Source: Lophium mytilinum (taxonomy: Eukaryota). Taken from it: a stretch of DNA of 64,000 bases. Below the pieces are notes generated by a model, which was given only the letters and a program-made list of their open reading frames with translations, had not been told where the DNA came from and ran no database searches. This document shows positions 15,954 through 49,494 of the stretch, in pieces (the stretch's first letter is position 1; each line of letters starts with the position of its first letter). The DNA is taken from NCBI GenBank assembly GCA_010093605.1, contig MU004196.1:580606-644605 (forward strand). The letters run 5' to 3'. Position numbers and translations under genes: made by a program.

Positions 15954-16149
15954 CCTTATAATATACTCTCGGCAGCTACCGCCGGAGGACGTAGAACAGC
16001 TAATACTAGACGGATTAGAACGCGCTTTTAGATAGAATAAGGTATAATATATTATAATTAACTAGTAGTTAGTCTAAATAGAAAAAGTATATTATATATA
16101 TTAAAATAGGCGTTTATAGTAAGAATAATAAAAAATTAGCCCCCCCTTC

Positions 16150-18770: not shown

Positions 18771-20926
18771 TCAGTGCTCATCAGACTCCTCATCTTCCGT
18801 GAGAGCGAGTCGATTCTCGTCGTCCTCATCCATGTTCGGATCAAACTCGATATCTCGAAGATATTGGCGCAGTTGCTCAAGCCTCGTCGTCCGTTGCGCT
18901 ATAGTCTCAGGCGCAACTCCGGATTCCCTAATTGCACGCTCCACATCTGCTGCCGTAGGCGGAGCGCCAGTCTCTGGGTTGATCGCTGTCTCTTCGAAGA
19001 GCCATGGTATTAAGCTTCGGAAAAACGACTGGAGGTTGGCATACTCGTGAAGAATGGTCGCTGTGTTCTCCATGTTTGAGTGGCCACGCCCGCCGGAGAC
19101 GCTGAGATCATATGAAGAGAGGTTGTCCGTCGGAGGTAGTGGATCTGAAGTGGAAGTGTATCGGGCCGTGAGACGGCGACTTAGGAGGCCAATAAGCGCT
19201 GGCGTATCTGTCAAGATAACGTGTCGGGCCACTTGAACCTCGTCGAAGATGACTTTGTCATGGGGCTCATAATCGGTCCAGTCACAGGTCGAAGCCACCT
19301 CTACCAAAAGGGAGGTAGCTTCTGGGGTATTCCAAAGATCCTTCGCCTTCGTAACATAGAGCTCGCAAAGCAGATTTTCGTAATCGCCTTCCGGCTCTTT
19401 TCCCCAGACTGGTTTGGGGATGGGGTTAATCTCGAGCTCTCTACACAGTCGACTTGCTATCCACGGATACTGCTGAAAGGCTGAACGCAACTTGGACCTA
19501 GCCAGCTCCGGTCTATTGTGCTGACTGTATGCTAGGCCAACAGAGGTTGCCAGATTTGGAGGCATGTGCCAAAGATCCTGGAGAAAATCAGAGCTTACAA
19601 TGTCGATCAATTGCTTGGGCTGGCGGGCTCGGAGAGCAAATTGGTCAAGCACTAGACGTATGCAGTACGGATCGCCTTCAGGATCTATGCTTAACAACAA
19701 TTTCGACCACTCGAAGGCCGTTCTCCAAGTCGAGCGCATGCCAAGGTTAGAGATATACCTCCATCCCGCCAGCCAGAACTCGCGGTTCTCGGGTCGCCGG
19801 AAATCCAGGCGTGCCTTTCCCTCGGAGAGATTCCTCGAGAACGTTGAATGGACTGATCGACCGAAGGAGAACAGAGCTCGCTCCAGGAGGTCCCCGGACG
19901 TTGTATGATCGCGTTCTTGCTTGGCGATCTCTGAAACCTGTAGTAGCGTAGAGATGTGATACGCTAGAATAATGTTAGTAGGGGTGGGGCTCTAGTACGC
20001 ATCGCGGGCCTAGATAATCGAGACACCTCGCGAAAAGGTATCAGAGTAAAGGAAGACCTACGATTGTTTCGAAGAAGCTGAATCATGCGGTTTGGATCCA
20101 TAGACGCTACACATGCTTCGAATTGTTTTTGCACATCCTGATATGCCATGTTGTGCACAAATCGATACTCGACCGTTCCATCTTTCCGCTTCTCCACCAC
20201 TTCCATCCCGAGACCTCCAGAGGGGGCTCCAGGCCATTCTTCTTTCCCTTGAATGAAGATGTTCCGCCGACGCCATATGGCTGCTAGATTACGCCCGCCT
20301 TGCACATTTCCACGCACAGCACCAGCAAGACCGACCTGCTGAGCACCTCTACCTCGGCGTCGTCCACCAGCTGCTTCTGCGTCATCGTGTCCCTCCAGAG
20401 CAGCCCTACCGAATAATCTGCGCATCTCGTTGGATGCGTGTAGGTGTTGCGTGTCCACAGATAGGATAGAAAAAAGTTCTTGTACCTCCGAACTGATGGT
20501 TTCAGTTAGTGTGCCCGATGCTCCGTCTCTATTGGAATGAGAGCTCAGAGAGAGCGCTAGTAGAGCACGATCGATCTCATCAAGCTGCTGCGAGTTTGCG
20601 GACTCCTTCGTCTTCTTCTGAGGTACTGGCTCTTTTCCGCGTTTGCTCTTCTTCTTTCTGCGCCTGGCGGCCTTCGTGGTCCGCTGTTGTGGCGCTGGAT
20701 CCTCAACTGTGGCTACTTCGTCCGAATTCTTCTCGCCTTCATCTGAGTCTTTCGCTTCGTCTTCGTCTTCATCATCCTCTCCGAGCATAGCGAACATGCT
20801 CGCTTTATTGCTTGGGGCGACGATGGGCTCGTCATCTGACTCATCAGTCTGTGGATGAGATAATTTTTCCAGCTGTTGCTTCTCTTCAAGCTCCCTCTGA
20901 GCTTTTCGGAGAGCTCGGGAAGACAT
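18771..20926 (-). CDS. RQC1: Ribosome quality control subunit Rqc1 / TCF25 (Nulp1), one intron
   Basis: MSSRALRK N-terminus; FVHNMAYQDVQKQF; spliced NNPYHISTLLQVSE...DLLERALF; RPENREFWLA; TWRTAFEWSKLLLSIDPEGDP. Confidence 0.92.
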
Positions 20927-21167
20927 GTTTGCTTGGGTTGAAGTGTTGTGCTGGTGAAGGACGGTGGCGGCCTGTGATGTGCTTGATTAGATGATGCTTT
21001 CCTAGCGCGCAAACTACGTCACGTGCCTTGAGATCGGGATCGGCCCTATTCACCCAGCACGGTTCGCCTTTACCTCATCAACCATCCGTCCCTCCCTCGG
21101 CTCTCACCTCACAGCGTCCAAATTCCCCCTCGACCTCCCCTCGACCTCCCCTCTTCCTTGCGTCCCA
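20927..21167. promoter_or_regulatory. Probable bidirectional promoter for RQC1 and PTC5
   Basis: 241 bp between divergent ATGs; GTCACGTG (bHLH/Cbf1-type box) at 21018-21025; CT-rich tract before the PTC5 ATG. Confidence 0.5.
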
Positions 21168-23109
21168 ATGCGTCGAGCAGCTATTCAAGCGTTTCGCTCT
21201 GCTCGCCGTCCTACTCTCCGCAAGTTTGTCAGAAATCGCAGCACCCCGTTCAGCCATGTCGCAGGGACGCGCTCTCTAACTACCCGGAGGGAGCGAGTGT
21301 CTATTAGTCTTTTGCACTCTTCCATGCTCTTCAGGAACTTCACGTACGCCGCAGTTGGTGCTGCTGTCGCCTCGGGTGCCTTTTACGCCATTCGCGGCAC
21401 GAGTTCTACCTCCCCTATCGGCGCCGCAAACCCAATCTCAGCAGACCAAAGTCGCAGTCTTAGCACGTCGAATGCTTACGCGAATTCCCCCAAATCGGAT
21501 CCCACTGGTACCGCAGCAGACAAGACCTCAGAATCTACTCGACGGGCTCTAGTGGTTGGACAGGGCTCATTATACACCGGCACGATTTCCGGTGACGGTC
21601 CACTATCGAAGGAAACGGACGACTACGGCAGGAAGGTTCTCGAGATGTTGACGCCGGAGCAAGCGACCCAGAAGCTTAGGAAAAATGAGGAATCATGGCT
21701 CGTTGGGAGAGGACAAGGCGTGGTTCGGTACGATGTGGTCCAAATCCCAAGCAACGATCCCATAGAGGATGACCATGCGGAAAAGATCATAGAGGTACCA
21801 CAGAGTGTGGCCGCAGCGACCGAGGGCTCTTCGGCAAGTGACTGGATGTTCTGGGGAGTCTTCGACGGTCACAGGTACGAACCATCTGCAATGGCGGCCG
21901 TCCGGAAAGCTAATATGTAACAGTGGATGGGTCACATCCGCCAAGCTTCGCCAGACCTTGATCTCATTTGTAGCACGCGAGCTTGACTCGACATACAAAT
22001 CAGCCCTCGCAGATCCTGCCTTGAAGTTCCCAGCTCCCGAGTCTATCGACAAAGCGATCAAGCAAGGGTTTCTCCGCCTCGACAACGAGATAGTCCACGA
22101 ATCCGTTGCAAAGGTTAAAAAGGCGCAGTCAAAACTTGTCGCAGCCGAACTTCTGGCTCCTGCTCTGTCGGGGTCCTGCGCCCTTCTCTCCTTCTACGAT
22201 AGCAGATCAAAACTTCTTCGCGTGGCCTGCACTGGCGACTCTCGAGCGGTCTTGGGAAGAAGAGCTGCGAGTGGGAAATGGACAGCGATGCCTTTATCAA
22301 TAGATCAGACGGGCGGGACACCTTCGGAAGTGGAGCGGTTGCAGAAGGAGCACCCCAACGAGCCATACGTCACCAAGAACGGCCGGATATTGGGAGGTCT
22401 CGAGCCAAGCCGTGCTTTTGGGGATGCGATCTACAAATGGAGCCTGAAAACCAATGAGGAGTTGAAACGCTCTTATTTTGGCCGGACCCACTCTAGCCTG
22501 CTCAAAACGCCTCCTTATGTTACCGCTGAGCCGATTGTCACGACTACAAAGGTCGACCCAGAAAAGGGAGATTTTGTGGTAATGGCTACCGACGGCCTCT
22601 GGGAAATGCTTACGAACGAAGAGGTCGTCGGACTGGTTGGCCAATGGCTAGACTCTCAGAGTGGTGGAAAGAACGCGAAAAACGGCCAGAGTGATTCGTG
22701 GCTCAAAAGCTGGTTCAGTACCCAAAAGGGCCTCCCAGTTGAACAAGGGGGGGCTGGAGACCCAAGTGGACAACGTGCACCCATTCGCCAACAGCAATGG
22801 GGCGCAAAGCCTCCCTACAGCGACCGCTTCGTCGTCGAAGACAAGAACGCGGCAACTCATTTGGTTAGGAACGCCCTCGGAGGGAAAGATCAGGATCAGC
22901 TTTCTGCGCTCCTGACTCTCCCCAGTCCCTACTCGAGACGATACAGGTAAGCATCCAAATAGACACTAGAATCGTGATCTTTTCTAACGGGTCCTAGGGA
23001 CGATCTCACTGTCGAAGTTATCTTCTTCGGCGAAGGTGCCGGTAGCGGAAACGTCACTTTGAATAAGGAAGCTAGCGCCTCTCACTCAGACGTGAAGCCG
23101 AAGCTATGA
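21168..23109 (+). CDS. PTC5: PP2C-family pyruvate dehydrogenase phosphatase (Ptc5), 3 exons
   Basis: Arg-rich presequence; PSNDPIEDDH, WGVFDGH(S)GW, SGSCALL, TGDSRAVLG, LEPSRAFGD, MATDGLWEML, SRRYR|DDLTVEVIFF; ends DVKPKL*. Confidence 0.93.
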
Positions 23110-23860: not shown

Positions 23861-26800
23861 ATGAGTGACCCAATCTCTGTTGCCGGCACGGCAATTGGAG
23901 TGGTCTCTCTAGGACTCAGCCTTTGCCAGAATCTTGTTGATTACGTGGAAGCTTTGCAGGACCGAAAGAATAACGTTCGGTCGATCTTGAGTAAAGTAGA
24001 TTGTCTCCGAACCTCTCTAGACATGGTCAAAGATGCAGTCAGTCACGTTTCACCCAGCCATCGGAATGTCGTCGATGCTGTGGAGAAGTGCCTTCGCGAG
24101 TCCGAGGCTGAGATGCGCCGCTTGGATGTGTATCTCAAGAACCTGAAGTGCGATTACATCATCACAGATAGCAAGAGCAAAAAGGTTAGATCGACCGCCC
24201 GAAAGCTCTTGTACCCTTTCAAGACGGCCAGCATCTAGAAGTTGGAGAGCGATATTCAAGCCATCAACGGTATCTTGGCAACTGCATTGCAGGCCCTTGG
24301 AATGTTAGTTACACCTTTCATAGTCCTCACATTGTCTCCAATCCACAATTCACGCTATTTCGCACTTTTTTCGGCAGTGTATTGTAGAGGTCATATATTA
24401 TAGCGATTTGACCTTGCGCGGAGGGTTGGTCCGACCGTCTTGTAGACATCATGTCTTACTGTCCCAGCTTCTCTGTTTAAACCCCGGCTTATTCGCTTTC
24501 AAAGTTAACATTGCACTCACAGCGACATCGGTAGCACACACTCAGGGCAGCTTTCTTCGCTCATCTCTACATCGGCCACCACGTCTGCTGCTGTTGGTTC
24601 TGTTCTCGATGGCGTTGTGGCTCTCCGTACCGATGTCTCGAACCTGTCATCAGACCTTTCAGTATCCGGTTCCTTGAACGAACAGAATCTCAACGAAGTT
24701 CGCCGAAATGTCTCAGTTATTATGCCAGAAGTGCACTCAGCGTTGCCTGCTATCAAGTACTCCGCAGCGGAAACGACGAAAAGCACGACTATCATTCAAT
24801 CTGATGTAAAAGCAGTTGGACAGGACATTGGCCAGATTAAGCAGGAGATCTTCGCATCGTCTAGTAGGCTAGAGCGAAACTCGGATCTTGTGCAGAGCCT
24901 GTTCTCCGAGCTCACCGAATTTCGATCAGATCATGCATCCCGGATGGAAAGTCTTGTAAGTAGCGACTGCCATCAAGCTCTGCTATGCTGACAATGTAGA
25001 AGGAAACAGAATTGCGCACTCTTCAATGTCGCCTACTATCAAAACCTGACGCCCTGCGTACCGTCTGCGACGACTACAAAATCTCTCAACCACCAAATCG
25101 CAAACGATCTCGTTTTGGGTCGCAAGGAATAAGGCCCTCTCATGCTTACTGTTGCTTGTTATGCAATTGTACTGCGAGCCGTTCCCTGGCCATAGGTCGT
25201 TATCTCTCGGGCTATCTATCCATATCTATCGAAAGGGAGGCTCATAAAGAGGTTCATGAGCAAGATTGCCCATTTCACAGCTCTCCAATGCGAAGCCGGT
25301 CCGTGAGGGCATCATTGTCTTGCTATGGGTCGTTCCTAGCTGGTACTTTGTCCACTGAGTTATCTTTCAGGACAGGCGCTGGTGGATGCTCGATCGCTCC
25401 ATCCCTCTCCTACAGTAGGATCGTGGCATGGGATTCCCCCGCATTCTTCCTTCTGGAATGCGAAACGGACTACTTCATCCGCGATAGATTCTCAGTGCCA
25501 CGGTACTATAAGGATACTGAAGATATCTTAGATCTATTGAATGCAGTGCCAACAAAGCTGCTCGAGATATTCGCTCGAAGACAGAGTTTACCGACAGATC
25601 TGAACGAACGAGGACAGTCGTTATGTCATGTAATAAAAATTTCCGTCCAATAGCGTATTCTCAGATGCTTACCGTTGACAAAGGTCGTTATGAAACTTAT
25701 AGACAAAAGAATGTGTAAAGACACCCAGACGGTTGAAGCTTTTCTTAGGATACTTCGCGTTCTGGTTTCGGTCGGAGCTCCCGTCAATCGTCTTGACTAT
25801 TCTGGCTGGTAAGCTATACCGTGGCGAGTCTAAGTCAACTTCTCTGCTAAGTGACTATATCAGTTCCCCAATGGATCAGTTTTGGCTTGAGATAGATCCC
25901 AATTATCCCTGTGACCTGGCACATATGGTGAGAAGTACAACCCTGGAATTGATCGATGGAGGCCTAGACATAGGTCCGGAGTTCCAGCCATCTCATCATC
26001 TAGGTTCGTTTTATCAAAGCTGTCTATCGGAGTGCCATGAGCTTGCAGAGAGTAAGAACCCGTAAGATAGTACAATGACCGCGAACTAAGAACATCAGTC
26101 TTCGAGTGTGGTCTCCTGAGCATGGCAGTACTACGGAAGTCTGAAAGGGAGATGCTGTATATCCTATCGAAATCGCCGAAAGCCGTACAAGAAAGAAACA
26201 AATTCGGGCAGACGCCGCTGCACCTATCTTGCGATTGGGATCGAGGAATGAAGATATTGATCGATGCAGGTACCGACATCGATGCGGTAGATTGCTGTAG
26301 TCGTCCAGTATTTCGTTACTGCGCCGAACGCAACTCCATCGAGTCGCTCGACCTCCTGCTCGAAGCTGGCTGTTATCTGTCAGGTCTCTGCGCCTTAGGG
26401 ACTGTCCCTGCACTCTCATTCGCGTTTGAAGCTGCTTCTTTGGACATCAAGCGACTGTTAGCAAATTCAATAGCGCAACGGCGATACGGCTTAAAACAAC
26501 TAGGGCTGGCTGCTTTGCCTATTCAGTCTCACCAGGCGCTTGGCCTACTTAATAGCGGAGCTTTGGATGGGAAGCTAGAGGGGCTCCTCGGTGCTTTGAG
26601 GACACAAAATATCCATATTCCATCGTTGTTCGAGAATCCGGGATATTTCGGACGTTGTTCTATCTATCATATGCGGGAACTCTCAATCGAGAGCGCAGAG
26701 ACTTTGTACAACGCTGGATTCATTGACATTGACGCATTAGACGAAGACGGCTTGCCACCGGTTTGCTTTCATTCGATGCAAAGGTCCTATTTAGTTTACT

Positions 26801-27840
26801 CTTCGGACTTCTCTCTTTTGAATTGGTTCTTACTGAAGGGTGCTAACTTGAATGCAAGCCTTCGCATGAAGGTTGGCAACAATACGACTCGATCGTGGAA
26901 GACTGCGCACGTTTTAGCGTACATGCTCGGCCAGAACATGCATAATCCAGGTTCCGGCTGGCATGCAGAATGGTATCATACTGTGTGCTGTCAACTAGAC
27001 CCGGATTGTCACGACATTATCGCCGGCAGCTGTATTGAAACATGCAAAATCGAGAGTCCCGACAGTTGCACTTGCGGGTGTTCCTTGCAAGGGTGTACTT
27101 CAAGCACCTTCATTATTAAAGGCTTGATTAGACGGTCCCAGGCATCTGACGGGTTCATTCAAATTCTCAGTCGCCACTGCTCACCAAACCAGACGTACTG
27201 GTCCTGGCAAGTACAGCAGGCGATACGAATCCTCACATTCAACGCATTGGGCTTGCGACACACTTGCTGTCTGTGGTTTTCATATAGGCCGTACGTCTCC
27301 GTTCAAACGCAAGAGGAGGTAGACGAGATCCGCGACGAAGACCGTCACCAACTCGAGCGGTTTGAAGACCTTGTCCAGGAATTCCAAATTGCATTCAACG
27401 AATCCGAAGAAACGTTACTGTCTTTTTTCCGCAACTACTGGACCCCGCGTATTGAAGAGGTGTTGAACGAACCCTACCCCGAGGACGAAGAAGAAATCCG
27501 ACGAATCGAGAATATTGGCGTCGTCTTAGAGAGACCACCTCTTACTGAACGCGAAGGTCAACTTGTACCAACTCCGTCAGTAGTCTTTGAGGACATCTAC
27601 TGCGACAACTGTGACATGCTCGTAGCAAACGAGCACTTCCACTGCTGCATCTGCAATTTTGACGACTACGACCTCTGCGCAGCTTGTTTCAACTCCGGCC
27701 TTCACTGTCATAGCAGAGACCACTGGATGATCAAGCGCTTCGTAAAGAACGGCATAATCACCGAAAGTAATACTGAGCATATTGGATTCAAAATGAAGTT
27801 TAGACCTACTCCGAGGATAGCGTGTCAAGTGCTTTCATAG
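23861..27840 (+). pseudogene. HeLo-like N-terminal domain + ankyrin repeats + Cys-rich region + ZZ zinc finger; 6 exons, one in-frame TAG at 24236-24238
   Basis: MSDPISVAGTAIGVVSLGLSLCQ (Helo_like_N type); ankyrin-like GQTPLHLSCDW; ZZ YCDNCD...HFHCCICNFDDYDLCAACF. Exons 23861-24303, 24523-24955, 25000-25629, 25684-25808, 25864-26051, 26099-27840 splice in frame; the TAG is the only lesion seen. Confidence 0.8.
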
Positions 27841-32987: not shown

Positions 32988-33446
32988 TAGACGCGTCTCC
33001 GAGGAATTTTGGGGGGGTGGTAGGAGGGCTGGGGGCTGGGGGCTGAGGGCGGCAGGTAAGGGGGTGGGGCGGGCCTTACTGTATTGAGTTGGAAATGACT
33101 CGGAGACGCGGCTGAGGCACCTGAGATAACATCAACCTAATGATGATCTCTGAATGCTTCACTTTTGTATGATAAGTTATATATCTGCTAAAATGGACTC
33201 TCCGTCACAGCAAATAATGACCTTCAAACCGTAAACTCCTGATCGAAATGATGCCTTAGCGAATCAGGCACATATCCCGAGGTCAGCATCAAGGCTCAGC
33301 CTCGTAAGCCGCCACCCTCCATAGCCACTGTACAGCCTTGTCTACTCGGAACAAAAAGATGGCCAGAGCATGGTTCGAGTGGATAGAACGAAATTGACAC
33401 TATGATGTCTAAACACTGAGGAGAAATCCTCCAACGACTTAGCATC

Positions 33447-36400
33447 ATGGCCGAGATCGGGCTCATAGCGTCCGTCATCCAAGTCGCCGGCGCAGGCCTT
33501 AAGCTCGCCGACACGTTATACCAATACGCCGAAGCTGTCTCAACCGCCGACAGACGCATTAAAGACATCGCTAGAGATGTCAAATTGACCTCGCGCGTCA
33601 TCGACGAGCTAGGAAGCATCTTTAAGCAGGACGAAACCGCGTTGTTGCTCTCCAACAATGCCGTCAGTACAGCCCAGGAGACGGTGCGCGAGTGCTCCAG
33701 TCTATTCGAAGAGATGGACGCCGCGCTCAAGAAAACGAAGAAGAATACGCTGGGAAGATTCATGATGCCTTTCCGAGAGCCGAAGATGGAACTTCTCCGC
33801 GCGAATATCGATCGCTTGAAGAGCACGTTGCAGTTATTGATGCAGGTTTTGACGCATGCGTATCAGGTGGCTTCTCAGTATGTTTTGAAGATCAACAGCT
33901 ACTATAAGCACCTAGCTAATGACGGCATATAGTAAGGCGCCGAAAGAAGTGGTGGCAGTCCAGCGCCATAATATCAAGGTTCTGATTAAGGCTAAAAAGG
34001 AATCTACGAAACGATATCAGGAGTCCTTAAGAAGCTACAGTATGAGTGACGAGAGCACAGTCTTGAAGTAAATCACGAAACTTTTGTTATCATCGAGTTC
34101 GTAGACTGACATTCGCAGTGACGACGAAATCTCTATCAACACGAAGGCGCTCGGCACGTCGACAGAGAAAGGCAGTGGATTTGTCACAACCGCCTCCTCG
34201 ATTAGCTCAACCATCACCAAGACAAGCCTAGCGTCATGTGTTGCACATATCCAGAAATTACTGAACGATATTGAACTCGTGCAGCATGCGCTAAACTCCA
34301 ACATCGAAGGCGAAGACGCTTCAGAACACGAACAGGCTCTTGTCGGCTCCTACTTTAGTGCTCGTAAACACCTCGACACCATCATTCTCGGCGGCTCGGG
34401 CCCAGGGAGAACCGACTCAGGCCTCTCAGAGGAGACGCTAGTAACGCCTCAAGGAAGAAATAACAATCAACAAGAGAACGCCGCAATGCTCGCCCCTCCA
34501 CCTGAAGAGACAAAGCCGGCGGTAAAGTTCGTTGATGCCATAGGGAGAAAGTTCGCTTTCCCATGGCAGTCAGCCAAAAGTTGGAGCGTGAGCCCACCCA
34601 CCCTTCTTTAATTCGGTTGCAATTCCCTGCTCTTCCTCCTTTCTAATACATTCAAAGGCAACACAAGGGCTGATCAACGCCGGCTTCGCTCCTATAGAAG
34701 GCTTGAACGAACACGTTGAGGCTGGCCACTACGACCTCGTGGGCCCGGACGGCGAAATCATTCTGCCCCAAATTTGGGAAACCTTCATCGAGCCTGGTAT
34801 GACTGTCAAGATGGAAATGTGGCCAATACCTCCACCGCCTCCACCACTTCCGCCAGCCATGGGGCCAAGTATGCCGGGTCCTCTTGATACCGGCACCTCG
34901 CAAGATCCGTCTGTACTACATGATCCGTTGAGGATACCAACAAAACTAGGACGGGAGCGTGGAAGTGCCAAAAAAGCAATAAAGTCGGGGGAAAAACCAA
35001 AAAGCACGACCAGCCCCCTCCCACCTCCACCTCCTCCTCCTCCACCCCCATCCCTTCCTCCCTCAGACCTCAAAATAGAGTCTACACTTGCCAAAAAGAC
35101 AAAGAAGTCGAAGAAGAAGTTAAAGAAAATACCAAAAGCCGGAATTCTCTGGGCATCTGGAAGCACTTCGCCGCCCGATTCGTCCGCAAAAGACGAAGTG
35201 AGCACAAAAAGCACCGCAAGAATGGTAAATGTAGGACCTGACTACGCCTTCCGAGAACGCGCTCGAAGTCGCTCAAGAGAGCGACAAACCTCTCTAGAGC
35301 CGGAGCATGGGAAAGCTAAGGCAGAGCGCGAGTCGGTGGAGATAGCTCGTGAGCAGATTCTGCGAGGGAGGATGGAGGAGCTTTCGAAGAGGAGAACGAA
35401 TTTGATGATTACCAAAGATGAGGCAAGGCGCAACAGAAAACATGTACGCATCGAGCTCGAAATGGATCACCTTAGAGAAGACATGGAAAGGATGCGCTAT
35501 AATGCCAGAAGGGAGCGTGAGGGTGAAGAATCACTCCGAAAGCGAGAGGAGGAGGAAGAGGCTATGCGAGAAGAGTTACGTCATAGGCAAAGGAACGAAG
35601 AGGAAGCTCGCAACGAGTTCGAAGAAGCTCTCCAGAGCAGGGAGCGGCCCGCTCGTTCAAGATATCAGTTCGAACCTGATGACTCCTTGGACGAAGACGA
35701 AAGCAATCTGGACGCATTTCTAGGCGCTACGAAGCGGCTGAGCGCGCTAGCTAGAGTCACAGGCCAAGAAGTGGACACGCAGAACACAAGTATCTCGCGA
35801 ATCGTCACAAAGACAGATAAAGTCGATGACCAAATTGCTCTCGTAAGCCCACTCGTCACCATTTCTTGACTGAAATAGAAAAGATCCACTAATATACCGA
35901 ACTATAGAATCGACAGCGACTTGATCGAATCGGGTTTGATCCTCCCAAACGACCCCAATCTCCTCCCAAACCCTACAGCGCCCAAGGAGGCCTCCACGTT
36001 GGCGACAACGACATCGACTTTAAGCTCGACAACTACTATAGAAAATCCAAAAATACTGACTATAGTCCCCACCCCAAGGCGGACATCTTCGAAGCTAAAA
36101 TAGCCAACGCAGTCGACGACAACACCAGCGACTCCGAGTCGTTTGTGTTTACCGCGGATTTTCTTGCCTCGGATTTGGACGCTGCTCCAAGTCAAGGCAA
36201 ACGTCAACATTCCCCGGCCCCCGCAGCGGCCGCGGTTTCAGGATTGGTAGAGTACGGGTCCACTGCCTCATTCACCCCAAGTTCGGAAGCGGAATACTCT
36301 GAAGGCGAAGAGCTCAGCTCTCCTGATATCGCGATCGACGGCGAAGTGGATGATGCGGAGGCCGTGCCACCGCCCTCTCAGCCTGCCCCGAAGCTGCGCA

Positions 36401-36825
36401 AGAGGACCAAGACGGGATGTTTGACATGTCGTAAGCAGAGGATTAAGTGCGGAGAAGAACGTCCTATTTGCAACAACTGCATCGACTCGAAACGTCTTTG
36501 CGAAGGATACAACCAGCGTGTTGTTTTTAGGGCGCCCACCGGAGAGTGGCCCAACCATCCGTCCACTGTCAACACACTTCCCCGGTACAGTTCAATGTTT
36601 TCCGGGGCCCGCCCTCAACAGGTAGAAGAGTGGGAGACTGGAAAACCCAGTAAACGGGATGCGAAGATGCAATTCATTGATGTTAAGGCTGGGGTTGATG
36701 AGGATGACGAAGATGACGACGAGGGCGAGGAGGATGCTGAGGTGGATGACCTGTTGAGTGAATGGACGACGCTCAAGAGGGAGGAGTATATGGAGGGAGG
36801 GGTAGACGTGAGAGGGGAGGCGTGA
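33447..36825 (+). CDS. Mosaic protein (~1045 aa): HeLo-like N domain, fungal ubiquitin-like domain, Pro-rich and coiled-coil region, Sec9-like Qc-SNARE, Vac7-like motif, Zn2Cys6 cluster; 5 exons
   Basis: Exons 33447-33877, 33933-34067, 34119-34587, 34658-35842, 35908-36825 total 3138 nt with no internal stop; each intron has a GT donor, a CTRAY branch site and an AG acceptor. Confidence 0.82.
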
Positions 36826-39735
36826 TTTGCCTTGCTTAGATGGATGTACGTAGCATCAAAATCCCAAAAGAATAAATGGCTGGAGCCCGGTTCGAACCTG
36901 GTCCTCGATGAGCGACCGAAGAAAAAGCAACGCAGGACATCTTAAACGTTTGGTGACTAAAAAACAATGGAAAGATGTCTCGACAATTCCTTCGCCAGTA
37001 GGCAAAGGGGTATGTACCTGTCAAAATTCCAAGGTTGAGGACGAAAGAATAAAGCAAAACATATACCTCAGTGAAACGAAACTGTTTGTACTTCGCTGCC
37101 CACACCCTACTCCGATTATATTTTCTTTTCACCATATCACGCAAGAGGTTTTCCACCGATGTAGTGCAAAACCAAGTGCGAATATGCCAGTGATCAGCGA
37201 TCTACTGTCTCCGCCTAGCGTGCATGACACGATTCTACTGTTGTCTATCCCAAAACAAAAATCCCAAAACTATGCAACCGCCCAACCTTGTTCTAGAAAT
37301 CACGATAAACAACCTATACAACCAGCCCCTTCGACTTCTAGAAAGCATGATACAGCCCATTCACTTCCCTGTTTCGAAGGTTGCCCCCTTCCACGCATAA
37401 GTGCAGTATGACTTGAATCGAGGTTTCCGTGTAGACCAAGCCCTCTATTATGAACTCCCGATCCACTTCAAGATACCACCAAGTGACCTTGAAAGTCAGT
37501 CTAGACGGTGAGGTTCTAGATTCCACCTCTACCCATCCATACCCTTAGCCTCACCTCCCATCCCCTCTCCCCCCTCCCCTCTCCTCAATCCCTCAAACCC
37601 ATCCGCCCACCTCAAACCCCAAAATACACAAGTCCCTCACCCAGCCCCTCCCCTCCATCACATGCCCGCCTCGGCTCCCTCCCCCAGCGCCCAGCCTCCC
37701 TAAACCCCATCACCGAGCTTCCCTCGCCGAGCTCCACTCCCCCGTCCCGGCGTCCAGGAACCAGGTGCCCCGGAAACCCTGTCCCTGCCTCTTGCAGATT
37801 GCACCCGCCGTCTCCAGATCCTACGCGCTGACGCCATCCCGGCCCGCGCGTTCGCGTTGTCAGATCAAGATGACCGCGCTCGGCGCCGAGATGCGGGCTT
37901 GGCGGTAAGGGCGGCGGATGAAGGGCGGCGGTGCGGGTGAGTAGCGCTGAGGCGAAGGGCTGGGCCCTAGGTTTGGCGGGAGGGGTGGGTGTTGGTGGAG
38001 GTGGTCGGACGAGGGTTGTAGTGGTGGGACGTCGGGTAGTGGGTGCTGGGCGGCACTAGGGGAGAGATGGGCGGAGCGCCATCGTGCCGAGAGCGGGCGG
38101 GATGGGAGGAGAGGAGGAGAGAGCGAGAGGTGTGGCTGATTTTCGTAGCTTAGGGTTCTTGCTTCCGCTTTTGGAGAGTTGGGGTGCTGGCTTTCTTTTT
38201 TTCTTTAGACGGGATATGTTGCGGCTTGGTTTGAACAATTAGGTCAAGAGTCCGATTCTGCCTGTATGGTCTTTTTCTTTGAAGCTAAGAGCTTTGGGTG
38301 TGATGGGCCATTCTCCACGGTGGTTTTTGGGGCTGTCGGACGGGGAATGCGAGGCCCTAATTCTAGACGTCTCGTCCTTCACATTGTTCTTGGGACTTCA
38401 TAGCTGTACGAGACGATTGCACACGGTAGAACTGTAGTCCTATCATGGCGAGACCTTTAGGAAGTTGACCAGATGTCGTGCTTTTTTGCATTGATAGACG
38501 CCATTCTGGGATTACGAAGCTACCTTAGACCGCGTAGAAGTAGCTATCTTAGAATGAGCAAGTCAAGATGCTGACTCCGACTGGCTCGTTGGTCTTGCGA
38601 ATTTCGAGGGCACGAGGCCTCATTTGACGGCTTGAAGTACATCTTTTAGGCGAGTAGTTGCAGTGCTTTGTTTCGAATGTTTCCATGATGGTGATGGCCC
38701 CGATCATTCTACTAGTACCGAGCTACTTCAGACGGAGTGATGATAGCTCTGTGTGGATGAGTGATCCGACACATTGATTTGGGCTAGCTCGTTATTTACA
38801 CTGGCCTTCGGATATTTCAGTCCGCTAGGCTACCTTAGACGGCTTGATAGTAGCTCCACAGACGAGCAGATCCACGGACCTAATTCCGGAGCCTCATCGT
38901 TGTGTTGTTTTGCCGAGCGCTCATTTAAGTTTTTCGTCACTGTCTAAGGCAACTCAACGGGCGTCTAAGATCTAGGTACCATGTCAAGCCTGATGCCTTG
39001 AAACCTGGGCTGTCTCTGAGGCAATACCCTGATTTAGCACGTGCAGAGTTGAACAGTGTACATCTGAAACCTCGGATCTGCCAGAGGTCTTCTGGAATGA
39101 TATTACATCTTCCAAAATGAAAGCACAAGAACAAGAGGAAGGATCTAGGTGGCTGGACTTCCATGTGCGAGAAACATATGACTTAGCATTCGGTATCTCT
39201 CTGGGAGTCATGCACACTGTTTGGCACTGTGTGAGGTGGCCCCGTAGGCTTCAAAAAGATGATGGGGATGTAAAGTTCCATACGGTGCAAGTTGTACTGC
39301 TTTTTGACCGAGGGGCCACCTAGCGCGGGGGTTTCTCCTGACAGTGGCATCCGTTTAGCAAAAGCGCCGCCTATGCGGTTCAATATCCCGAGCCCAACCA
39401 CGAAATCTACTAGCATGCTAAATCGACGTGGTTTCAACGCGTAGGGGTCGATATCCAGACGAGGGACAAGAATAGGGGCTTTATCGTCACGTTTTCTTTC
39501 CATTTGGTAGTAAATTGAACCACACGACCACGAGAACTATAGGAACTCTCACCCAGTGCTGACTTACCGCTCCCTCGATCGTGAACATAAGGTCGGCAAA
39601 AAGCAACGCCGGGTGCACGTGGTCACGCGCTATCGCGCCAGCGACCTCACTCCTCACTTGCTTTTGCTGCCGCCTTTTGGACTTCCTTCTTCTTGTTCTT
39701 GTTCTTCTTCAACTTCTTCATCAAACAACGACACC

Positions 39736-40134: not shown

Positions 40135-43100
40135 ATTTAGAAAGAGATAAGAGATGGATGACGATGTAAGCTGAGAGAAAGAGATAACAGATTTGACGAT
40201 GTTGATAACTAAGGAAGATCCTCCTGGGCTATTCGAAACCTACACTCAAGTGATGTCAGAAGCACCGAGTCCAAGATCACGCTGGATCTTCGCACTATCA
40301 AAAAAGCAGTTCAAACAACCTTATCGTCGACTCGCGCAGATCCAGCCAATGCCAGAACAGTCGCGTGGAGCTACCAATCTTGCCATAGGCTTCGGCCGAA
40401 TAAGGCGCTACCCCTCACCTTCTTTCGACGACGCCGCTGTTGCTCGATCGGCACGCTGCGAGCGAATCAGGCGCGTCCAGCACGATAATCAGGCCATGCG
40501 ACGAATCAAGGCGGGGCGGACTCCAGGGCTTGCTTCTGAGAGGTTGGCTGTCCGTTGATACATATTCAGGGCGGGAATATGTATGTACAGTGTGGCAGCG
40601 TCTCACACCGACATTTGGCATCCCCGCGCGTTAACGAGGGCAATATGAAAGTCAATATTCGCGCCTGGCGACGGCGGCGGCAAAGTAGGTGCGAGGGCGC
40701 CCAAATCGGTCCCGCGGAGACTGGGATCGGAAGTAAACAGCCGCTGGCGGGTGGTCGAGGTGGTGCGAGTGTTGGGAATCGCGGAGAGGAGGTCAGAGTC
40801 ATGGCCACGGGTACTTATCGAATAATCCCCCACAACGAAAGCGAGTGCCTGCAAGCGAATCCCGCGGACGGCGAGCACGCTAGCCCGCAGCCTATCCAGA
40901 GGAGGATAGGCTTGCCACGTGTTGCAAACCCTGCTCGCGCGGGCTTTGGCCAACGGCCATGACTCGGCGACCAGAAAGCTGCCCAGGAGAGCCGATTCGC
41001 CGGATGATCTACGGCAAGCCGTAGGGCAGAGACGGGATTCTGAGGGCCTGAAGGCTGCGGAGGCTTCAGCCCACGATACACATCCAACGAAGAGATCGTG
41101 AACGCGTGCAGCCATCATGCAAGCCTCAAGTTGCGTGCGAGATCCAGGCCTCTTGGCCCAACAGACGCATCCCAGCAGTCCATGCCCCCAACCAGCCTGT
41201 CCAGCCTTGCTCCTTGCAAATTGTCGAAGCGATGCAAAGGCTCCCCCGTTCTCGCAGTGACCCCCAGCACCGCGTCGACGCAGCAGTATGGACCACAGGC
41301 GCTGTGCGCTGCGGAGACCGAGTGAGCGCGCCTGGCGCTGATATTTACGGCGGGTATCTCGGAGGAGGCCCATCCCAGCACGTCTCTTGCCTCGCTCTTT
41401 GCGCTCTGCGGGCTTCCTCGGCCTATTGCTGGTGAGGCGCGAGCGGTTTCCACTAGCCATGCTGGCTGCATGCGGACACGAGGCCACAGTCGGTCCAGCG
41501 TGTCATATGCTCCACCAACCCGCTCGCTACTTGACCGCAACAACGAGCGGAATAGGCCCGCCAGATATCGGTGATCGGCCCAAGTGCCGTCCACGATGCT
41601 GCCGGGAGCACTGCCGGACGCTCTGCTGCCGGCAAACCGGGCCTCGAAGTGTCGACACTCGAGGGCGTTTCACAGCCCCTTGCCGATGATGCTGGCACGG
41701 CGACACGCAGGACACGAGGGCGAAACGTGGGGGGCGTGCGCTGGGGCCGAGTCGGAGATTTCGCCAGGCTTCTTGCCAGATGCGACTGGTGCTGATGGGC
41801 GAACGTTCTGCCCGGCTTCGCTGCTAGCTGCTTCGGCATCCCGAACCCCTGACGGCTCGGCACACAGCTCCTTCGTCTTGTTCTCCCGCCCACGCTGACC
41901 AACCGCGCCGACTAATGCCTCCGCCAGCGTCCCCACCAGCGTCTCCACCCTGCGCAAGAAGCACATCTCAGACATGCGGGCAGCCGGGCCATTCCGCCGC
42001 TGGTGCCGGCGGAGAGGAAGGCTTGGTTGTCGCGGGAGGCCGCGCCCGGAAACCCTGAAACCCTGAGGGCGGTGGAGGCAAGGAGCTCCTGGCCGCGGGA
42101 GAGCTGGGCTCATGTCTCGCAGCCGCAAGCAACGTGTCTCACTGCGGGGACGTCGCACACGTGGAGCGATCAGTCGAGAAACATGTCGTCAGGCCCGCGT
42201 CCATCCACAACACACACCCAGCCGTCGCACTGCGTTGCCGGCGCGGCAGATGTCACGTTTGCCGCATGGGCCTGAGGATCTGCGGCACGCGAGCCGGTTG
42301 GTGTTTGCGCGTCGTCGGCCTCGTGTACGGTGTGCGTGCTGTGCGGCCTGGCTGCCCTGTTGCCTGTCCGCCGCTGAGACGAGGCGGTGCTGGGTGTGGC
42401 ATGCGGAGGACCACGGCCCTGACTCTCTGCTCCTGAGCATGAGATGAGGTTGTGCTGCCGCGGAATGTGGGCGGAAGGCAGGAGGCGGTGCTGACGGGAG
42501 ACTGGTCGGTCGGTCCGGGCCAGGGTGCAACGTGGAGGGCACGTTGTTGTGGAAAATTGTGGAATGGAGCTAGCAGCCACGTCCCGCACCGTCAGCGGCT
42601 TCAGGCATCAAATCCTCCAGCGCCCGTCTCGAGCCAGGGCGCTGCAGGACCGTCAGGTTAGTGACTCCAAGGGACAGAGCCGCAGTCCAGGCCGGCGATG
42701 CGCGCAGCCGTGGCCGCTGTTGCACACGACGGGGCTTTGAGGAGGGCAAAACGGCGGTGCAGCCGTCGAAACCCGGTTGACCTGGTGCCGTGCTGCTGTC
42801 TGAGAGGCCACGGCCCCGCTGCAGAAGGTATCCCGGCGACAACGTGCTGTGGAGCGCAGACTCGCAGATTCCTCCAGATGCAGAGCTGTCGTCAAAAGTC
42901 ATGCAGCGCCTCTTGTGAGCCATGCAGCGTCGCCGCCCGCGATCAGCACAGTATGCAGGCGCCATCGCCGTCTTCTCCGCCGCGTCGGCGAGCCCAGCGA
43001 GCCGGTGTCGACGGACCCGTCGAGGGTTGTTTGGCTTTGGCGGTGCTTGCTGGCGGTGCCCGTGATAGTAATCGGCGAGACTCTGTGCGGCGAAAGGGGC

Positions 43101-43612
43101 TTGCGATCCCGCGTCGGGGAGCTCCAGGGCCTCGTTGGACTCGTTCGGGGGCCTCCACGTGGGCATGCTACGGCGTGTCGCTGAGAGGAGTGGTGGTGCT
43201 GGCCCGATGCCGCTGTGGTGCTTTTGCAGATGCGCTGCAGATTCTCTGGATGCTCTGGATGCTTGCCAGAGCGCTGGAAGAGGCGTGGAGGTTATAGCCT
43301 GCGAAACATCAGCGCCCCATCCGCTCGTTGTACCTCAGCACTCTGCTCCCAAATTGCCGTCCCACCGCGATCTGCAGGGATGCCTCGTGGTCGCCCGCCA
43401 TGGATCGCGTTAGCTCTGCCCTGGAGTCTCACGGCCGGGGGCGCTGGATCATCACCAGGCGGGTTTAGGGCAGGCCAGTGTCGTAGGCCCAAGCCAGCGT
43501 GCAGGTAGCTCTGAAACACCCTTGCTCGTACCCACTCCGTCTGCGACCTGCCCAGGTCTGTGAGGTGCTCTCGCTGAGGAGCGCTCCTACCCTCACCCGC
43601 CCAGCATCCCAG

Positions 43613-46244
43613 ATGCCGTATACTACCTCCCCCTTCGCCTCACTCGACTCCATCTCCCCACCACTCCTCCCACTGCACTCCCACTACACTGCCCGCGCGC
43701 CCTCCCTCAGCGACACTGCCTCTGCTCCCGCTGCTGCGACTACTCACTCGTCGACGGCCCGATTGTCAGCAGCCTCGCTGATTGTGACCTCGGCCTCCGC
43801 TGCTGGTGAACTCTCTTCCGCCAGCGACACCACCGCGGACCCCAATTTTCAGCGAGCCGATCGAGCCCCGAGCGACCCCCGCCGCCTGTCTCGTCGCCTG
43901 CCGCTGCTGTCGAGGAAGCCGTCGCGCCCAGACGTTGCAGCACCCGACCACCAGCAGTCCGCATCGTCGAGCACCTCACCCGCCCACTCAACCGTCTCTA
44001 CGCCCTCACCACTCGCAATTCAGCAGCCGGCCCGCCCTTCTCTTTCGTTGCCGCGAGCCCGCGACAGTTCCGCCAGCCTGGGCTCGATTGCTGCAGAGGC
44101 ACGCCCGCCGACGCAGAGGAATCCCAGTTCGGGGTCGCTGTCTCAGACCGCCTTGTCGCCGCCGCTGGCGCATATAAACAGTTCCCGCAAGTCCAGCGAG
44201 GTGCCCGCTTCTTCTGTCGCCAACCGCCGCGGGAAGCTCCAGCTGTCTCGTTCGCTGTCTCGGCTCGAGTCTGGCCAGCGTAAACACAGTACTTCAGGCG
44301 TGGCCCAATCGCAGACCGCCAAGGACAAAAAGATGCATCAAACGTCGTCGAGGCTGCTCCGTATGACGGACGATGAGCGCCCATTCACTAGAGTAAGTGC
44401 AAACATTTTGTCGTGTCCCGGCGTGGCCCGGCTTCCGCTTTGGGCAGCCACGTTTAAACAGCCGCGCTCCTCGACCACCAACCTCGCTCCCCCACCATTA
44501 CTTTCCTTTTCACCTCCACCCACCTCAATTCCTTGAAGTCCCCGCCAGGATGCCCGCTATGGACTGGCGACAGACCCTCAAAATGGCCCTGGAGGTCACT
44601 AACCCAAACATGGCCGCCCACAAAGGCACTCCCGCAGGACTCCTGGCACGTCGAGAAGCGTTGGAATTGGCCGAGCGAATCACCTCCGCCCGCACCCGCG
44701 GCTGGCTCTCTCAGGTTGTCCTCTCCTGGATCAGCTAACTTTTACTATTCTGGATCTCGCATTTTGTAGTGAATTGGCTTAGCTAACGTGCATCTCATCT
44801 AGGACTTCAAAGATCTCTTCTCAACGCTCATGGTATCTCTCCCACTCATTCCGCACCGCGTGCGCTTCCACATGATCGACCACACCTTCACGACCGAGGA
44901 GGCCATCACCAACCTCGGCAGTCTCAAGTTCTCCCAGTCCAACCGCATGCCAGACCCCAAGGACTCCTCCCGCGTCGTAACCACGACCACAACAACCACC
45001 TTCTCAATGGCGAAAGAGATGGCTCGCTCAGTCTGCCAGAAGTTTCTTGACGCTCGGTTCATTGAGTCGGTGGATGGCAAGTCGGACTTCAACAGCAAGA
45101 GCTCCGTCTGGCAACTCACCCCCAAGGGCATCCACATCCTCGAACGCTTCTGCAACCGCAATGGCATCCAACAATCACATGTTCGCGACGTGACCAACTC
45201 CTCTCGGAATGCTGGAGCCCTCGTGGTTCTGGAACGTGAGCACGAGACGGATAGGCTAAACCGCGACGGGGACACGCTAAAGATTCTTTTCTCTCGATTC
45301 GTCGGCCACAAGGCAAATGATGAAGGAGGCTCCGACTCTGACTCGCTACACGAGTTTTGCCGCTCCAACGTCGGCGTCAGGATGATTCGGGAGCGCCGAT
45401 TCAATGACAAGCTCTACCTCTACACTTTCACCGGCAAGGCTACCGTTGACTGGCTCATGGACTGCTGCAGCATGGTCGACAAACGCGAGACGTACGAAGT
45501 CGGCGGCTTGTTCCTCGAGCAAGGCTTCATGGCTCCGGTAGAAGGCTACACTCCTCGTGATCGGTTCGTGGCCTCGAAGCAAGCTATCTACTACGTCACC
45601 CCGCTCGGAGAAGAAGTCGCGGGCTGGATTGCCACTCCTGAGGGCTCCGTCAACGGCGAGGCTAACGGCAAGCCCCGTGACGGTACGATGCGAGATTCCA
45701 ATGCCAATCGCATGGGAGTCATCATCACCAACCCGGCAGCACGTCTCCTGTTCCGCGAGTTCCTGCAGGAGAGCCATTGCGCAGAGAATCTCTCTTTCTA
45801 CCTCGAAGTTCAAGATTTCACCAAGCAGTATAAAGAGGCGAAAGCTATGAGCCCAGCCCCCAAGGTCGAGGTCATCCGCGAGACATTGGCTGCGGCGTAC
45901 AGCTTGTACAACGCCTTCCTTGCCCCTGGTTCTCCGAACGAACTGAACATCGACCATAGTCTCCGGACTCAACTCGCTAGCCGCATGACTCGGGCAGTTG
46001 GTGACGATACGTCAATGCTCAAGAGTCTAGATGAGGTTGCACTCCTGTTCGATCGTGCCCAGAACTCCATCTTCAAACTGATGGCCAGCGTAAGGATCCC
46101 CATGATTAGTCTATTCCTCTACTTATTACTAACTTCAGTCAGGATTCCGTGCCCAAATTTGTCCGGAGCCCGAAGTATCTACAACAGATCCGAGAGCGCA
46201 ATCTGGAGTCTTCCCTAGGAGCACCATCCCGCTCATCACCATAG
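43613..46244 (+). CDS. flbA: Regulator of G-protein signalling FlbA/Sst2 (DEP-DEP-RGS), 3 exons; start uncertain
   Basis: MHQTSSRLLRMTDDERPFTR|DFKDLFSTLMVSL; SQSNRMPDPKD; TTTTTTFSMAKEMARSVCQKF; FTGKATVDWLMDC; HCAENLSFY; AFLAPGSPNELNIDH; KLMAS|DSVPKF. Confidence 0.95.
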
Positions 46245-48410: not shown

Positions 48411-49494
48411 TCACTCGAGCTCAAAGCGCTTTTCGCCTAACCTCACCACTGTGAAAGGAGCATCTCCCAGCTCCACCGAATCGTTCTTCCCTAGACTTGT
48501 TTCAACTACAAACCTCTTTGGACGAGTCACCGCTTTCAACGGTTTCCACAGGTCCTCTTCCAAATCAGCATCCAACACTGACACAAGATCCATAGGGTTA
48601 GACGATGTGCACAGATCTACGAGGCGCACGTTTAGCTCTCGCAGTCCTTTCATGCTTGCAATGACACGCCATGCCCGTTCCCAGATGAGCTTATCGTTGC
48701 AGCCGGCCCAGTTGCTTGAAGTCGGGTCGAACTTGAGAAACACGAATGAGACGTCAATGTCTAGTCTCTGGATAGAATGAAACCGATGCGGGAGTACGGC
48801 GGCGGAGAATGCGGTGATGGGCTCAAAGGCGGCAAAGGAGAAGGTGTTCAGGGTATAAAGAGCTGGAATCGCCTCGGAGTAGCTGTAAAGGTTAGTATCG
48901 GGTGCTCGAAAGCATGCTTGAAGTGCTGTGGATGGACATTTACATTCTTCGGCATGCCAATGGGAGTGCCAAGAGTCCTTCTGTAGCCGGCGAGACGTTA
49001 CTCCAGCCATCGAGACTCGGAACTCCGTAATCGTAGAAATCTAACTTGGTGTAACGGTCCCACCCAAATAGCCTCCAGCAATCCTGCTTAGAGTGCGAAG
49101 GATCTTTGCATTTCATGTGCTCCAACTTTCGGTCGTCTGGGTTCGGCCGGACATGAATCTGGCTATAACCCAGCGCGGCTTCCCATATGAGAAGGCGTAT
49201 CTCAGCAGGCAGTTTGTTGTACAGTGGAGATTGAGATTGGTCGAAAGTCACTTGATCAGAGTCCGAATTCTCTTCGCAAGTGAGAGATAAAGCCCGTTTC
49301 CGCCGAGATGGAAGCGGTTTGACTGATGGATTCGAAGGGCCGTCAGGGAAGTAGCCGTGACTAGGTGGCGGGCCAAGCGGTATCAGAGGCGATATAAGGC
49401 CTTTGCTGAGCCGTCGGGGGATATCGGTGAGATGCATTCTCAACCTCAAGCTACGAAGTATTAGCCTGAACATTTCTTTCGTTGATTTACGCAT
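48411..49494 (-). CDS. DUF7730/2EXR-type (F-box-like) fungal protein, 2 exons; start uncertain
   Basis: DQSQSPLYNKLPAEIRLLIWEAALG and LLALPLACRRM|YSEAIPALYTLNTFSF, then WERAWRVIASMKGLRELNVRL. Confidence 0.78.

Follow-up and report, generated by a model that had tools for sequence, protein, structure and literature searches.

A 64,000-nt stretch of Lophium mytilinum contig MU004196.1 (positions 580,606 to 644,605 of the forward strand; this whole stretch is called the window below, and all coordinates are counted from its first letter) contains at 33447–36825 on the plus strand one transcribed five-exon gene, which encodes a 1045-amino-acid member of a conserved Dothideomycete family; we hold this with high confidence. 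Proteins of the family consist of an N domain of about 280 amino acids, a long disordered linker, and a C-terminal Trp motif. Both ends are conserved and the middle is variable, with a linker that accepts foreign modules. In the Lophium protein the linker carries a ubiquitin-like domain, a SNARE helix of the Sec9 type, a Vac7-like motif, and a Zn2Cys6 cluster; in other lineages it carries Snc1 SNARE motifs, heptads of the Rpb1 C-terminal domain (CTD), a Gcn4 basic region, an acyl carrier protein (ACP), Zn clusters, and the ubiquitin-like domain ULD_2. We tentatively suggest, with a probability of roughly 0.3, that the protein may be a self-guarded executioner whose linker serves as bait.

Splicing of exons 33447–33877, 33933–34067, 34119–34587, 34658–35842, and 35908–36825 produces 3138 nt, i.e., 1045 codons and a stop codon (36823–36825), in agreement with the single intact open reading frame (ORF) of about 1045 amino acids that the first-pass annotation, made from the letters alone, had proposed. 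The stop-to-stop ORFs at 33.4–36.8 kb of the plus strand form the four separate pieces that it had also described. All four introns start with GT, end with AG, and have branch-like sites CTAAT or CTGAC: intron 1 at 33878–33932 (55 nt), intron 2 at 34068–34118 (51 nt), intron 3 at 34588–34657 (70 nt), and intron 4 at 35843–35907 (65 nt).

One 3396-nt contig of the public sequencing run X1 spans 33145–36781 and omits exactly these four introns, hence the contig is spliced; as to the single mRNA that the first-pass annotation wanted to see checked, this one contig matches all four predicted introns. The contig has a word depth of 53.9 and 0 mismatches to the window; it starts 302 nt upstream of the ATG and ends 44 nt short of the stop codon. 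Run X1 contains 84% of the words sampled from this gene stretch; that the run is RNA is a guess, and its spliced contig is the evidence relied on here.

Two or more genes, or a chimeric assembly, might nevertheless have been read as one, since the ORFs are separate and a short-read contig can chain overlapping transcripts and cannot prove a single molecule. However, the four GT–AG introns are skipped exactly, and both ULD_2 and the Sec9-like helix cross an intron (introns 3 and 4, respectively), which supports the splice sites independently; together with the open frame of 1045 codons, these two domains make separate genes very unlikely. Each pair of neighbouring modules is linked by a common exon or by an intron-crossing domain, and homologues from other genera share both the start of the N domain and the end of the tail. 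We find a mis-joined gene model hardly credible.

The 5' leader (33145–33446, plus strand, at least 302 nt, counted from the contig start) contains 10 upstream ATGs with upstream ORFs of 2–26 codons, all closed before the main ATG. An in-frame stop at 33417–33419 precedes the main ATG at 33447 (context ATCATGG), and the N-terminus given by this ATG, MAE, is in line with the family, 69 of whose 80 members start with MA. A long leader with 10 upstream ATGs suggests regulated translation and may mean tight translational control. Two further contigs of run X1 end or begin just beyond the gene, at 33093–33129 and 37230–37300, with one loose end at 33129; presumably, they represent neighbouring transcripts.

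The search with exon 5 against 1.84 billion representatives yields 1907 matches (225 at E ≤ 1e-10, the best 1.4e-32) and led to proteins P0053 and P0066, both of which match residues 1–282 at about 55% identity and end in LLRDWTTVL or LLKEWTTILG. The search with P0066, in which only the 8000 candidates with the most words in common were scored, so that the true range may be wider, reveals 80 homologues with E from 0 to 7e-54. The named sources include Ascochyta, Didymella, Alternaria, Bipolaris, Curvularia, Pyrenophora, Stemphylium, Plenodomus, Paraphaeosphaeria, Periconia, Melanomma, Lojkania, Lophiotrema, Cucurbitaria, Pyrenochaeta, Zopfia, and Lepidopterella. Residues 1–282 are 45–61% identical to those of the family by BLASTP, and up to 66% in the tree alignment.

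The tree of 74 N domains, a quick IQ-TREE run, largely follows taxonomy: it recovers Didymellaceae, Pleosporaceae, and Plenodomus, has one row per named species, and places the Lophium protein as a sister to the Lepidopterella protein (66% identity; Shimodaira–Hasegawa-like approximate likelihood-ratio support 99). A taxonomy-like tree with one row per species suggests that the gene is single-copy and vertically inherited. Full-text literature contains no description of the family or its architecture that we could find; most subscription journals and preprint supplements lie beyond this search.

At the C-terminal end, the tail motif EVDDLLSEWTTL (36739–36774, plus strand) follows an acidic run and occurs once in the six-frame translation of the window. 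The first-pass annotation let the protein end with DDLLSEWTTL; this string is indeed present, but it is followed by 16 further residues before the stop. The family consensus D-E-V-D-x-L-L-[RK]-E-W-T-T-[VL]-[LF]-(G) is seen in 54 of 81 proteins, i.e., in 53 of the 80 homologues and in this protein. In these tails W is invariant; V(–7), D(–6), L(–4), L(–3), and T(+1) are each kept in 49–53; and W lies 4–5 residues from the C-terminus in 46. Many of the 27 proteins lacking the tail look like truncated or misjoined models, several of which stop at the ULD_2 intron. Position +3 from W is occupied by V, L, or I in 44 of the 54 tails, and about five of the 12 preceding residues are acidic. The xLIR pattern, i.e., that of the LC3-interacting region (LIR), in the form we take it to have, fits 34 of the 54 tails.

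The start of the tail consensus (D in 39, E in 44, V in 49, and D in 52 of the 54 tails) is identical to DEVD, the classical caspase-3 tetrapeptide. To our knowledge, fungi have no caspases, hence we regard the likeness as a coincidence, though a striking one.

The linker between the conserved ends varies in length from about 150 to about 850 amino acids, and its sequence is poorly conserved, with windows of 0–52% identity. The Pfam census of all 80 homologues at E ≤ 1e-3 shows ULD_2 in 13 (six of them cut at the intron), Zn_clus in six, the Rpb1 CTD repeat in five, synaptobrevin in three, and PP-binding in one; at least one recognisable module is present in 26 of the 80. P0178 has about 13 true YSPTSPx-type heptads, the ACP of one homologue keeps the serine of GMDSL, and the synaptobrevin pieces are, among PDB sequences, closest to yeast Snc1 (P0229, 4.4e-13; P0196, 2e-3). 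With a looser pattern, 14 of 81 proteins show heptad-like repeats, among them the whole Pyrenophora clade (four proteins). Five of 81 proteins have an exocytic SNARE motif, which is Snc1-like in P0163, P0196, P0228, and P0229, and Sec9-like here; the N domains of P0228 and P0229 are present as N-truncated models. These five occupy at least three separate places in the tree, and the modules in general are scattered over it. As the modules are bracketed by the family N domain and tail, they are not neighbouring genes. The comparison of N-domain homologues that the first-pass annotation had asked for turned out in favour of its suggestion: the EWTT tail is shared and the middles differ.

In P0163 from Cucurbitaria berberidis, residues 700–803 contain a Gcn4-type basic region (E 0.011) followed directly by an Snc1 piece (8.6e-6), i.e., two unrelated captures stand side by side in one linker.

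Turning to the modules of the Lophium protein, the ubiquitin-like domain, poly-Pro runs, Sec9-like helix, Vac7-like motif, and Zn2Cys6 cluster that the first-pass annotation had listed are all recovered, the Vac7-like motif as a fragment. ULD_2 (PF22893; 34510–34828, plus strand) is split by intron 3 and exceeds its cut-off of 24.5 bits on both sides: residues 131–156 of exon 3 match profile positions 2–27 with 24.6 bits, and residues 3–57 of exon 4 match positions 30–84 with 63.1 bits. It is 30–54% identical to ULD_2 of other fungal proteins. The following low-complexity linker (34829–35650, plus strand) shows in translation two poly-Pro runs, a K-rich patch, and an E/R-rich, helical-looking stretch; it matches no Pfam family beyond a chance-level Macoilin match (E 0.017). 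Exon 4 has only four matches among longer database proteins, all on the ULD_2 part, and none of them is a close orthologue carrying the Sec9 piece.

The stretch at 35651–35931 (plus strand, split by intron 4) reproduces the Qc SNARE helix at the C-terminal end of Sec9, together with the acidic RYQFE lead-in. Among PDB sequences, the end of exon 4 matches yeast Sec9 with E = 1.8e-4 and the C-terminal SNARE motif of SNAP-25 with about 3e-3. In the large protein database, all 24 matches to this stretch are Dothideomycete proteins of Sec9 size (294–453 amino acids; 49–64% identity) and, where named, are Sec9 or plasma-membrane t-SNAREs. In the spliced protein, the BLASTP alignment with Sec9 runs from about residue 677 through intron 4 to DQIA/LNRQRLDRI (the slash marks the intron), and stops at the last or second-last residue of Sec9 itself. 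Of the 33 columns with at least 95% conservation among 24 real Sec9s, the copy has retained 29; its 16 heptad-layer positions include 12 identical and four conservatively changed ones, and the 0-layer Gln is kept. Over the motif, it is 61–73% identical to Dothideomycete Sec9s, with a mean of 0.69 versus 0.85 among real Sec9s.

No credible Qb helix accompanies this complete Qc helix: the upstream alignment is 31–34% identical, gapped, and rich in charged residues, and there is no Pfam SNARE match in the exons of the protein. Since two helices with a 0-layer Gln are needed, the protein is not a Qbc SNARE of the Sec9/SNAP-25 kind; the helix ends where Sec9 ends but is embedded mid-protein, and the protein is not a Sec9 orthologue. 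At ten real Sec9 loci from metagenome contigs, the Qc-helix intron lies at QK/SD in five, 10 codons upstream of the position of intron 4, while in three the last part of the helix is intron-free, one of these having an intron further upstream. At locus L001 (2700–2870) an intron lies 1 nt from the position of intron 4, in phase 1 there and in phase 0 here, which hints at a genomic rather than a reverse-transcribed copy of Sec9; the hint comes from one of ten loci, whose taxonomy is not established.

The Vac7-like motif (PF12751; 36067–36249, plus strand) scores 32.8 bits, or 36.8 on a shorter piece, against a cut-off of 28.7. The match covers only profile positions 61–119 of 383 and marks a fragment, not a Vac7 orthologue. 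The Zn2Cys6 cluster with its flanks occupies 36340–36672 (plus strand), the core CX2CX6CX6CX2CX6C being at 36412–36519; Zn_clus scores 30.3 bits versus a cut-off of 21, and all six Cys are present. With its flanks, the stretch resembles the N-terminal 110 or so residues of small stand-alone Zn2Cys6 proteins, and the matches of exon 5 fall mostly on residues from about 13 to 125 of proteins of 300–500 amino acids. All of the 150 exon 5 matches listed fall within the Zn cluster and the sequence flanking it, none covering the Vac7-like stretch. Beside its cluster, a Zn2Cys6 transcription factor would have a fungal transcription-factor middle homology region; this protein has no match to Fungal_trans or Fungal_trans_2. 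In the tree of the cluster (76 rows, 87 columns), 51 of 73 forks are open, and single and multiple capture are not separable.

The variability of the linker may also be explained by neutral accretion, in which duplications at the DNA level now and then place gene pieces in a tolerant disordered linker, the pieces persist without a function until decay sets in, and only the N domain and the tail matter. The wide range of linker lengths with poor conservation is consistent with this, as are the many members without a module, the origin of the modules in unrelated pathways, and the intron of the Sec9 piece 1 nt from that of L001, as would be seen for a genomic copy; moreover, only short, conserved motifs are recognisable, which inflates the bias toward housekeeping proteins. 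On the other hand, the modules are intact, not decayed. In two Paraphaeosphaeria orthologues, the Zn-cluster windows are 78–88% identical, similar to the N domain (75–92%), and most flanks are not conserved to this degree, with linker windows at 38–72% before the cluster and 18–48% after it. CTD-like heptads persist across a genus-level clade (four Pyrenophora-clade proteins), and the Sec9 helix has diverged to 61–73% identity, yet its changes avoid the conserved columns. Judging from these alignments, some modules are constrained, and we consider neutral accretion rather unlikely.

The N domain (residues 1–282; 33447–34398, plus strand, exons 1–3 with introns 1 and 2 inside) comprises a HeLo-like four-helix bundle (residues 1–143) and a helical extension of about 140 residues. 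The first-pass annotation had called it HeLo-like; a match to PigL_N (PF17111, formerly Helo_like_N) and the four-helix model agree with this, but the match in this protein, at 24.1 bits, is under the cut-off of 27.2. The score is derived from the 143 residues of exon 1 only (residues 4–130, profile positions 4–131 of 209), and the domain runs on across introns. In the family, PF17111 is found at E ≤ 1e-3 in 69 of 80 members and reaches at least 27.2 bits in 14. In the protein atlas, the nearest clusters are those of PF17111 (feature score 0.95; 19 of 30 matches with that family set), with a structural template-modelling (TM) score to these clusters of 0.84, normalised to the match. Given the matches in the family and the atlas placement, we class it as a HeLo-like domain that is divergent and bears a helical extension. 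PMC9815663 assigns PF17111 to the HeLo-like, MLKL-related pore-forming class.

The AlphaFold2 model of exon 1 alone has helices 2–30, 36–62, 70–96, and 111–142, with a predicted local distance difference test (pLDDT) score of 75 and a predicted TM score of 0.67. The model of the homologue P0173, built with the family alignment, has helices 2–31, 37–62, 71–97, 112–184, 215–240, and 249–271 (pLDDT 70–96), a disordered linker (33–40), and a tail helix (about 57–71). Helix 1 is hydrophobic and rich in small residues, G5, A8, S9, Q12, A14, and G17 being invariant. The predicted complex of the N domain with the last 35 residues of P0173, for which alignments were not used, scores 0.00 and gives no evidence either way.

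The VIA-align neighbours of the N-domain models are IncA (Z 11.8–12.1), the Rx coiled-coil domain (9.4–10.3), MLKL (4btf, 9.2–9.8; 6ux8, 8.6–9.1), and MLA13 (8.4–8.8), all at Z values that, according to the tool's own note, helical bundles reach by chance; the MLKL match has a root-mean-square deviation of 2.5–2.8 across about 100 residues. HET-s HeLo is not among the 50 VIA-align neighbours listed, which proves nothing, and Foldseek against PDB finds nothing at E ≤ 1e-3 for either model.

For both models of residues 1–143, chlamydial IncA ranks first among the structural neighbours (Foldseek E 4e-3 to 8e-3); it is itself a four-helix bundle of SNARE-like type. The likeness is curious, given the SNARE pieces within the family.

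The N domain might be an interaction or membrane-binding helical bundle, and the protein an adaptor or scaffold, not a death protein. The modules would then act as in their donors: the SNARE helix would bind exocytic SNAREs, while the Zn cluster, basic region, and CTD heptads would reach nuclear partners; the acidic W-T-T-[VLI] tail would be an Atg8-interacting motif, as in a selective-autophagy receptor or a trafficking regulator. The largely taxonomic gene tree, the housekeeping neighbours of the gene, and the long leader suggestive of regulated translation are in favour of this role, and so are the LIR-like tail (W-x-x-[VLI] in 44 of 54, the xLIR pattern in 34 of 54) and IncA as the best structural neighbour. 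Soluble fusion regulators with an R-SNARE motif exist, e.g., tomosyn, a "decoy SNARE", which likewise carries a SNARE motif on a soluble non-SNARE protein. However, the modules have no common pathway, the SNARE motif is present in five of 81 proteins only, and a lone Qc helix lacking the Qb helix of Sec9 makes a poor SNARE partner; in addition, the relatives in PF17111 are known as cell-death effectors (PMC9815663). An adaptor role is possible, though somewhat unlikely.

All functional statements on this protein are inferred. We return to the self-guarded executioner, which we prefer because of the family of the N domain, the intact mimic-like modules, their turnover, and the repeated capture of exocytic SNARE motifs. 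The captured modules would be kept as interaction surfaces mimicking host proteins, and the HeLo-like N domain would act as the output by attacking membranes or killing the cell, in the manner of HET-S, HELLP, and MLKL. The conserved tail may keep the protein inactive, in that it either folds back on the N domain or passes the protein on to a partner, e.g., Atg8. Once a linker bait is cut, bound, or modified, the tail would lose its hold on the N domain, which would thereby be released; overall, the protein would work as a "tripwire" executioner with no need for an NLR (NOD-like receptor).

In a more specific form, which we regard as unlikely, the pore-forming N domain would be locked by the DEVDxLLxEWTT tail, and the tether between them would be an evolving array of baits, namely exocytic SNARE helices, RNA-polymerase CTD heptads, DNA-binding motifs, an ACP, and a ubiquitin-like domain. 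Antagonists that attack any of these host targets with a protease or a modifying enzyme would then also spring the trap.

The first-pass annotation had suggested an integrated decoy, and the variation of intact modules between homologues fits this suggestion, but several observations speak against it and against the executioner. The tree largely follows taxonomy, unlike those of most fungal immune genes, and 54 of the 80 homologues have no recognisable module; five of eight long members compared with PDB sequences (P0217, P0193, P0212, P0174, and P0192) also yield none, P0192 having a chance-level flagellin match only. Because short, highly conserved motifs are detected more readily, some of the recurrence of modules is due to ascertainment. 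ULD_2, which many members share and which is probably old, is not a fast-turning bait. The PF17111 score of this protein is sub-threshold, and the structure says no more than "a four-helix bundle", with matches (Z 9–12) in the chance range of helical bundles and chlamydial IncA, not MLKL, at the top. The last 81 residues match no amyloid-motif family (Pfam, E ≤ 10), and the tail corresponds to none of the known amyloid signalling motifs. Finally, no NLR domain is found in the 18 ORFs of at least 150 amino acids between 18.7 and 49.5 kb, so within about 15 kb of the gene.

Pfam reveals NACHT or NB-ARC neither in the exons of the gene (E ≤ 1) nor among the 80 homologues (E ≤ 1e-3); the first reading of the sequence, which saw no P-loop of this kind, was correct in this respect.

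Executioners that are autoinhibited or act as protease tripwires include NLRP1 and CARD8 with their linkers, gasdermins, and MLKL with its four-helix bundle and brace. The Lophium protein shares with them a layout in which an N-terminal domain is followed by a disordered linker and by a C-terminal part that might restrain it; here, however, the C-terminal part is a short motif instead of a domain, and the MLKL match (Z 9.2–9.8) is not specific.

In plants, NLRs contain integrated decoys, e.g., the heavy-metal-associated (HMA) domain in RGA5 and Pik-1, and WRKY in RRS1. As in these, copies of host proteins stand here within a protein with a cell-death-type N domain, their content varies between orthologues, and they stay donor-like at functional positions. 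The nucleotide-binding domain that defines such NLRs is absent, as is a repeat sensor domain, and a row of several short, mutually unrelated motifs takes the place of a single folded domain. Putative integrated decoys are proposed in NLRs of Sordariales (PMC12258605).

With HeLo and HeLo-like effectors (HET-S, HELLP; PF14479, PF17111), the protein shares the N-terminal four-helix bundle with a small-residue-rich helix 1, and it is likewise free-standing, with a disordered region and a short conserved C-terminal element. In contrast to these effectors, the element is an acidic Trp motif of 13–15 amino acids and not an amyloid signalling motif; further differences are the helical extension of about 140 residues, the foreign modules in the linker, the taxonomy-like tree, and the lack of an NLR domain in the nearby ORFs scanned. 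According to PMC9815663, free HeLo-like proteins normally carry C-terminal amyloid motifs and are encoded beside NLR genes, and they are assumed to depend on an external controller, as a rule an NLR that acts via the amyloid motif. The Lophium protein would work at most like such an effector or like MLKL, but it lacks the element that controls them.

The genes around the locus are, in the order of coordinates, Tcf25 (18771–20986, minus strand; two ORFs with an intron), a PP2C phosphatase (21793–22950, plus), an ankyrin-repeat protein (26071–27840, plus), a DEP and RGS protein (44803–46218, plus), and a DUF7730 protein (48411–49512, minus; two ORFs). An AT-rich block at 14001–18000 (GC 0.31–0.37 versus about 0.5 elsewhere) may be a degraded repeat. 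GC-rich stretches lie at 42001–44000 (0.656) and 58001–60000 (0.614), and ORFs there have no Pfam match at E ≤ 1e-4.

Taken by its parts, the protein would be a HeLo-like protein with a new control architecture, that is, a conserved Trp tail and a linker with intact host motifs. Should the modules be baits, the family would represent decoy-based surveillance in fungi that does without a receptor; if, furthermore, the NLR-free executioner is true, a single conserved gene would be the fungal counterpart of both the integrated decoys of plants and the NLRP1 tripwire of animals. An adaptor role would mean that a four-helix-bundle protein is wired in a new way to exocytosis, the nucleus, or autophagy. 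Should both readings fail, the family would provide a clean natural case of exon-scale capture into a disordered linker. The family is present in many cereal and vegetable pathogens, e.g., Alternaria, Bipolaris, Pyrenophora, Didymella, and Plenodomus.

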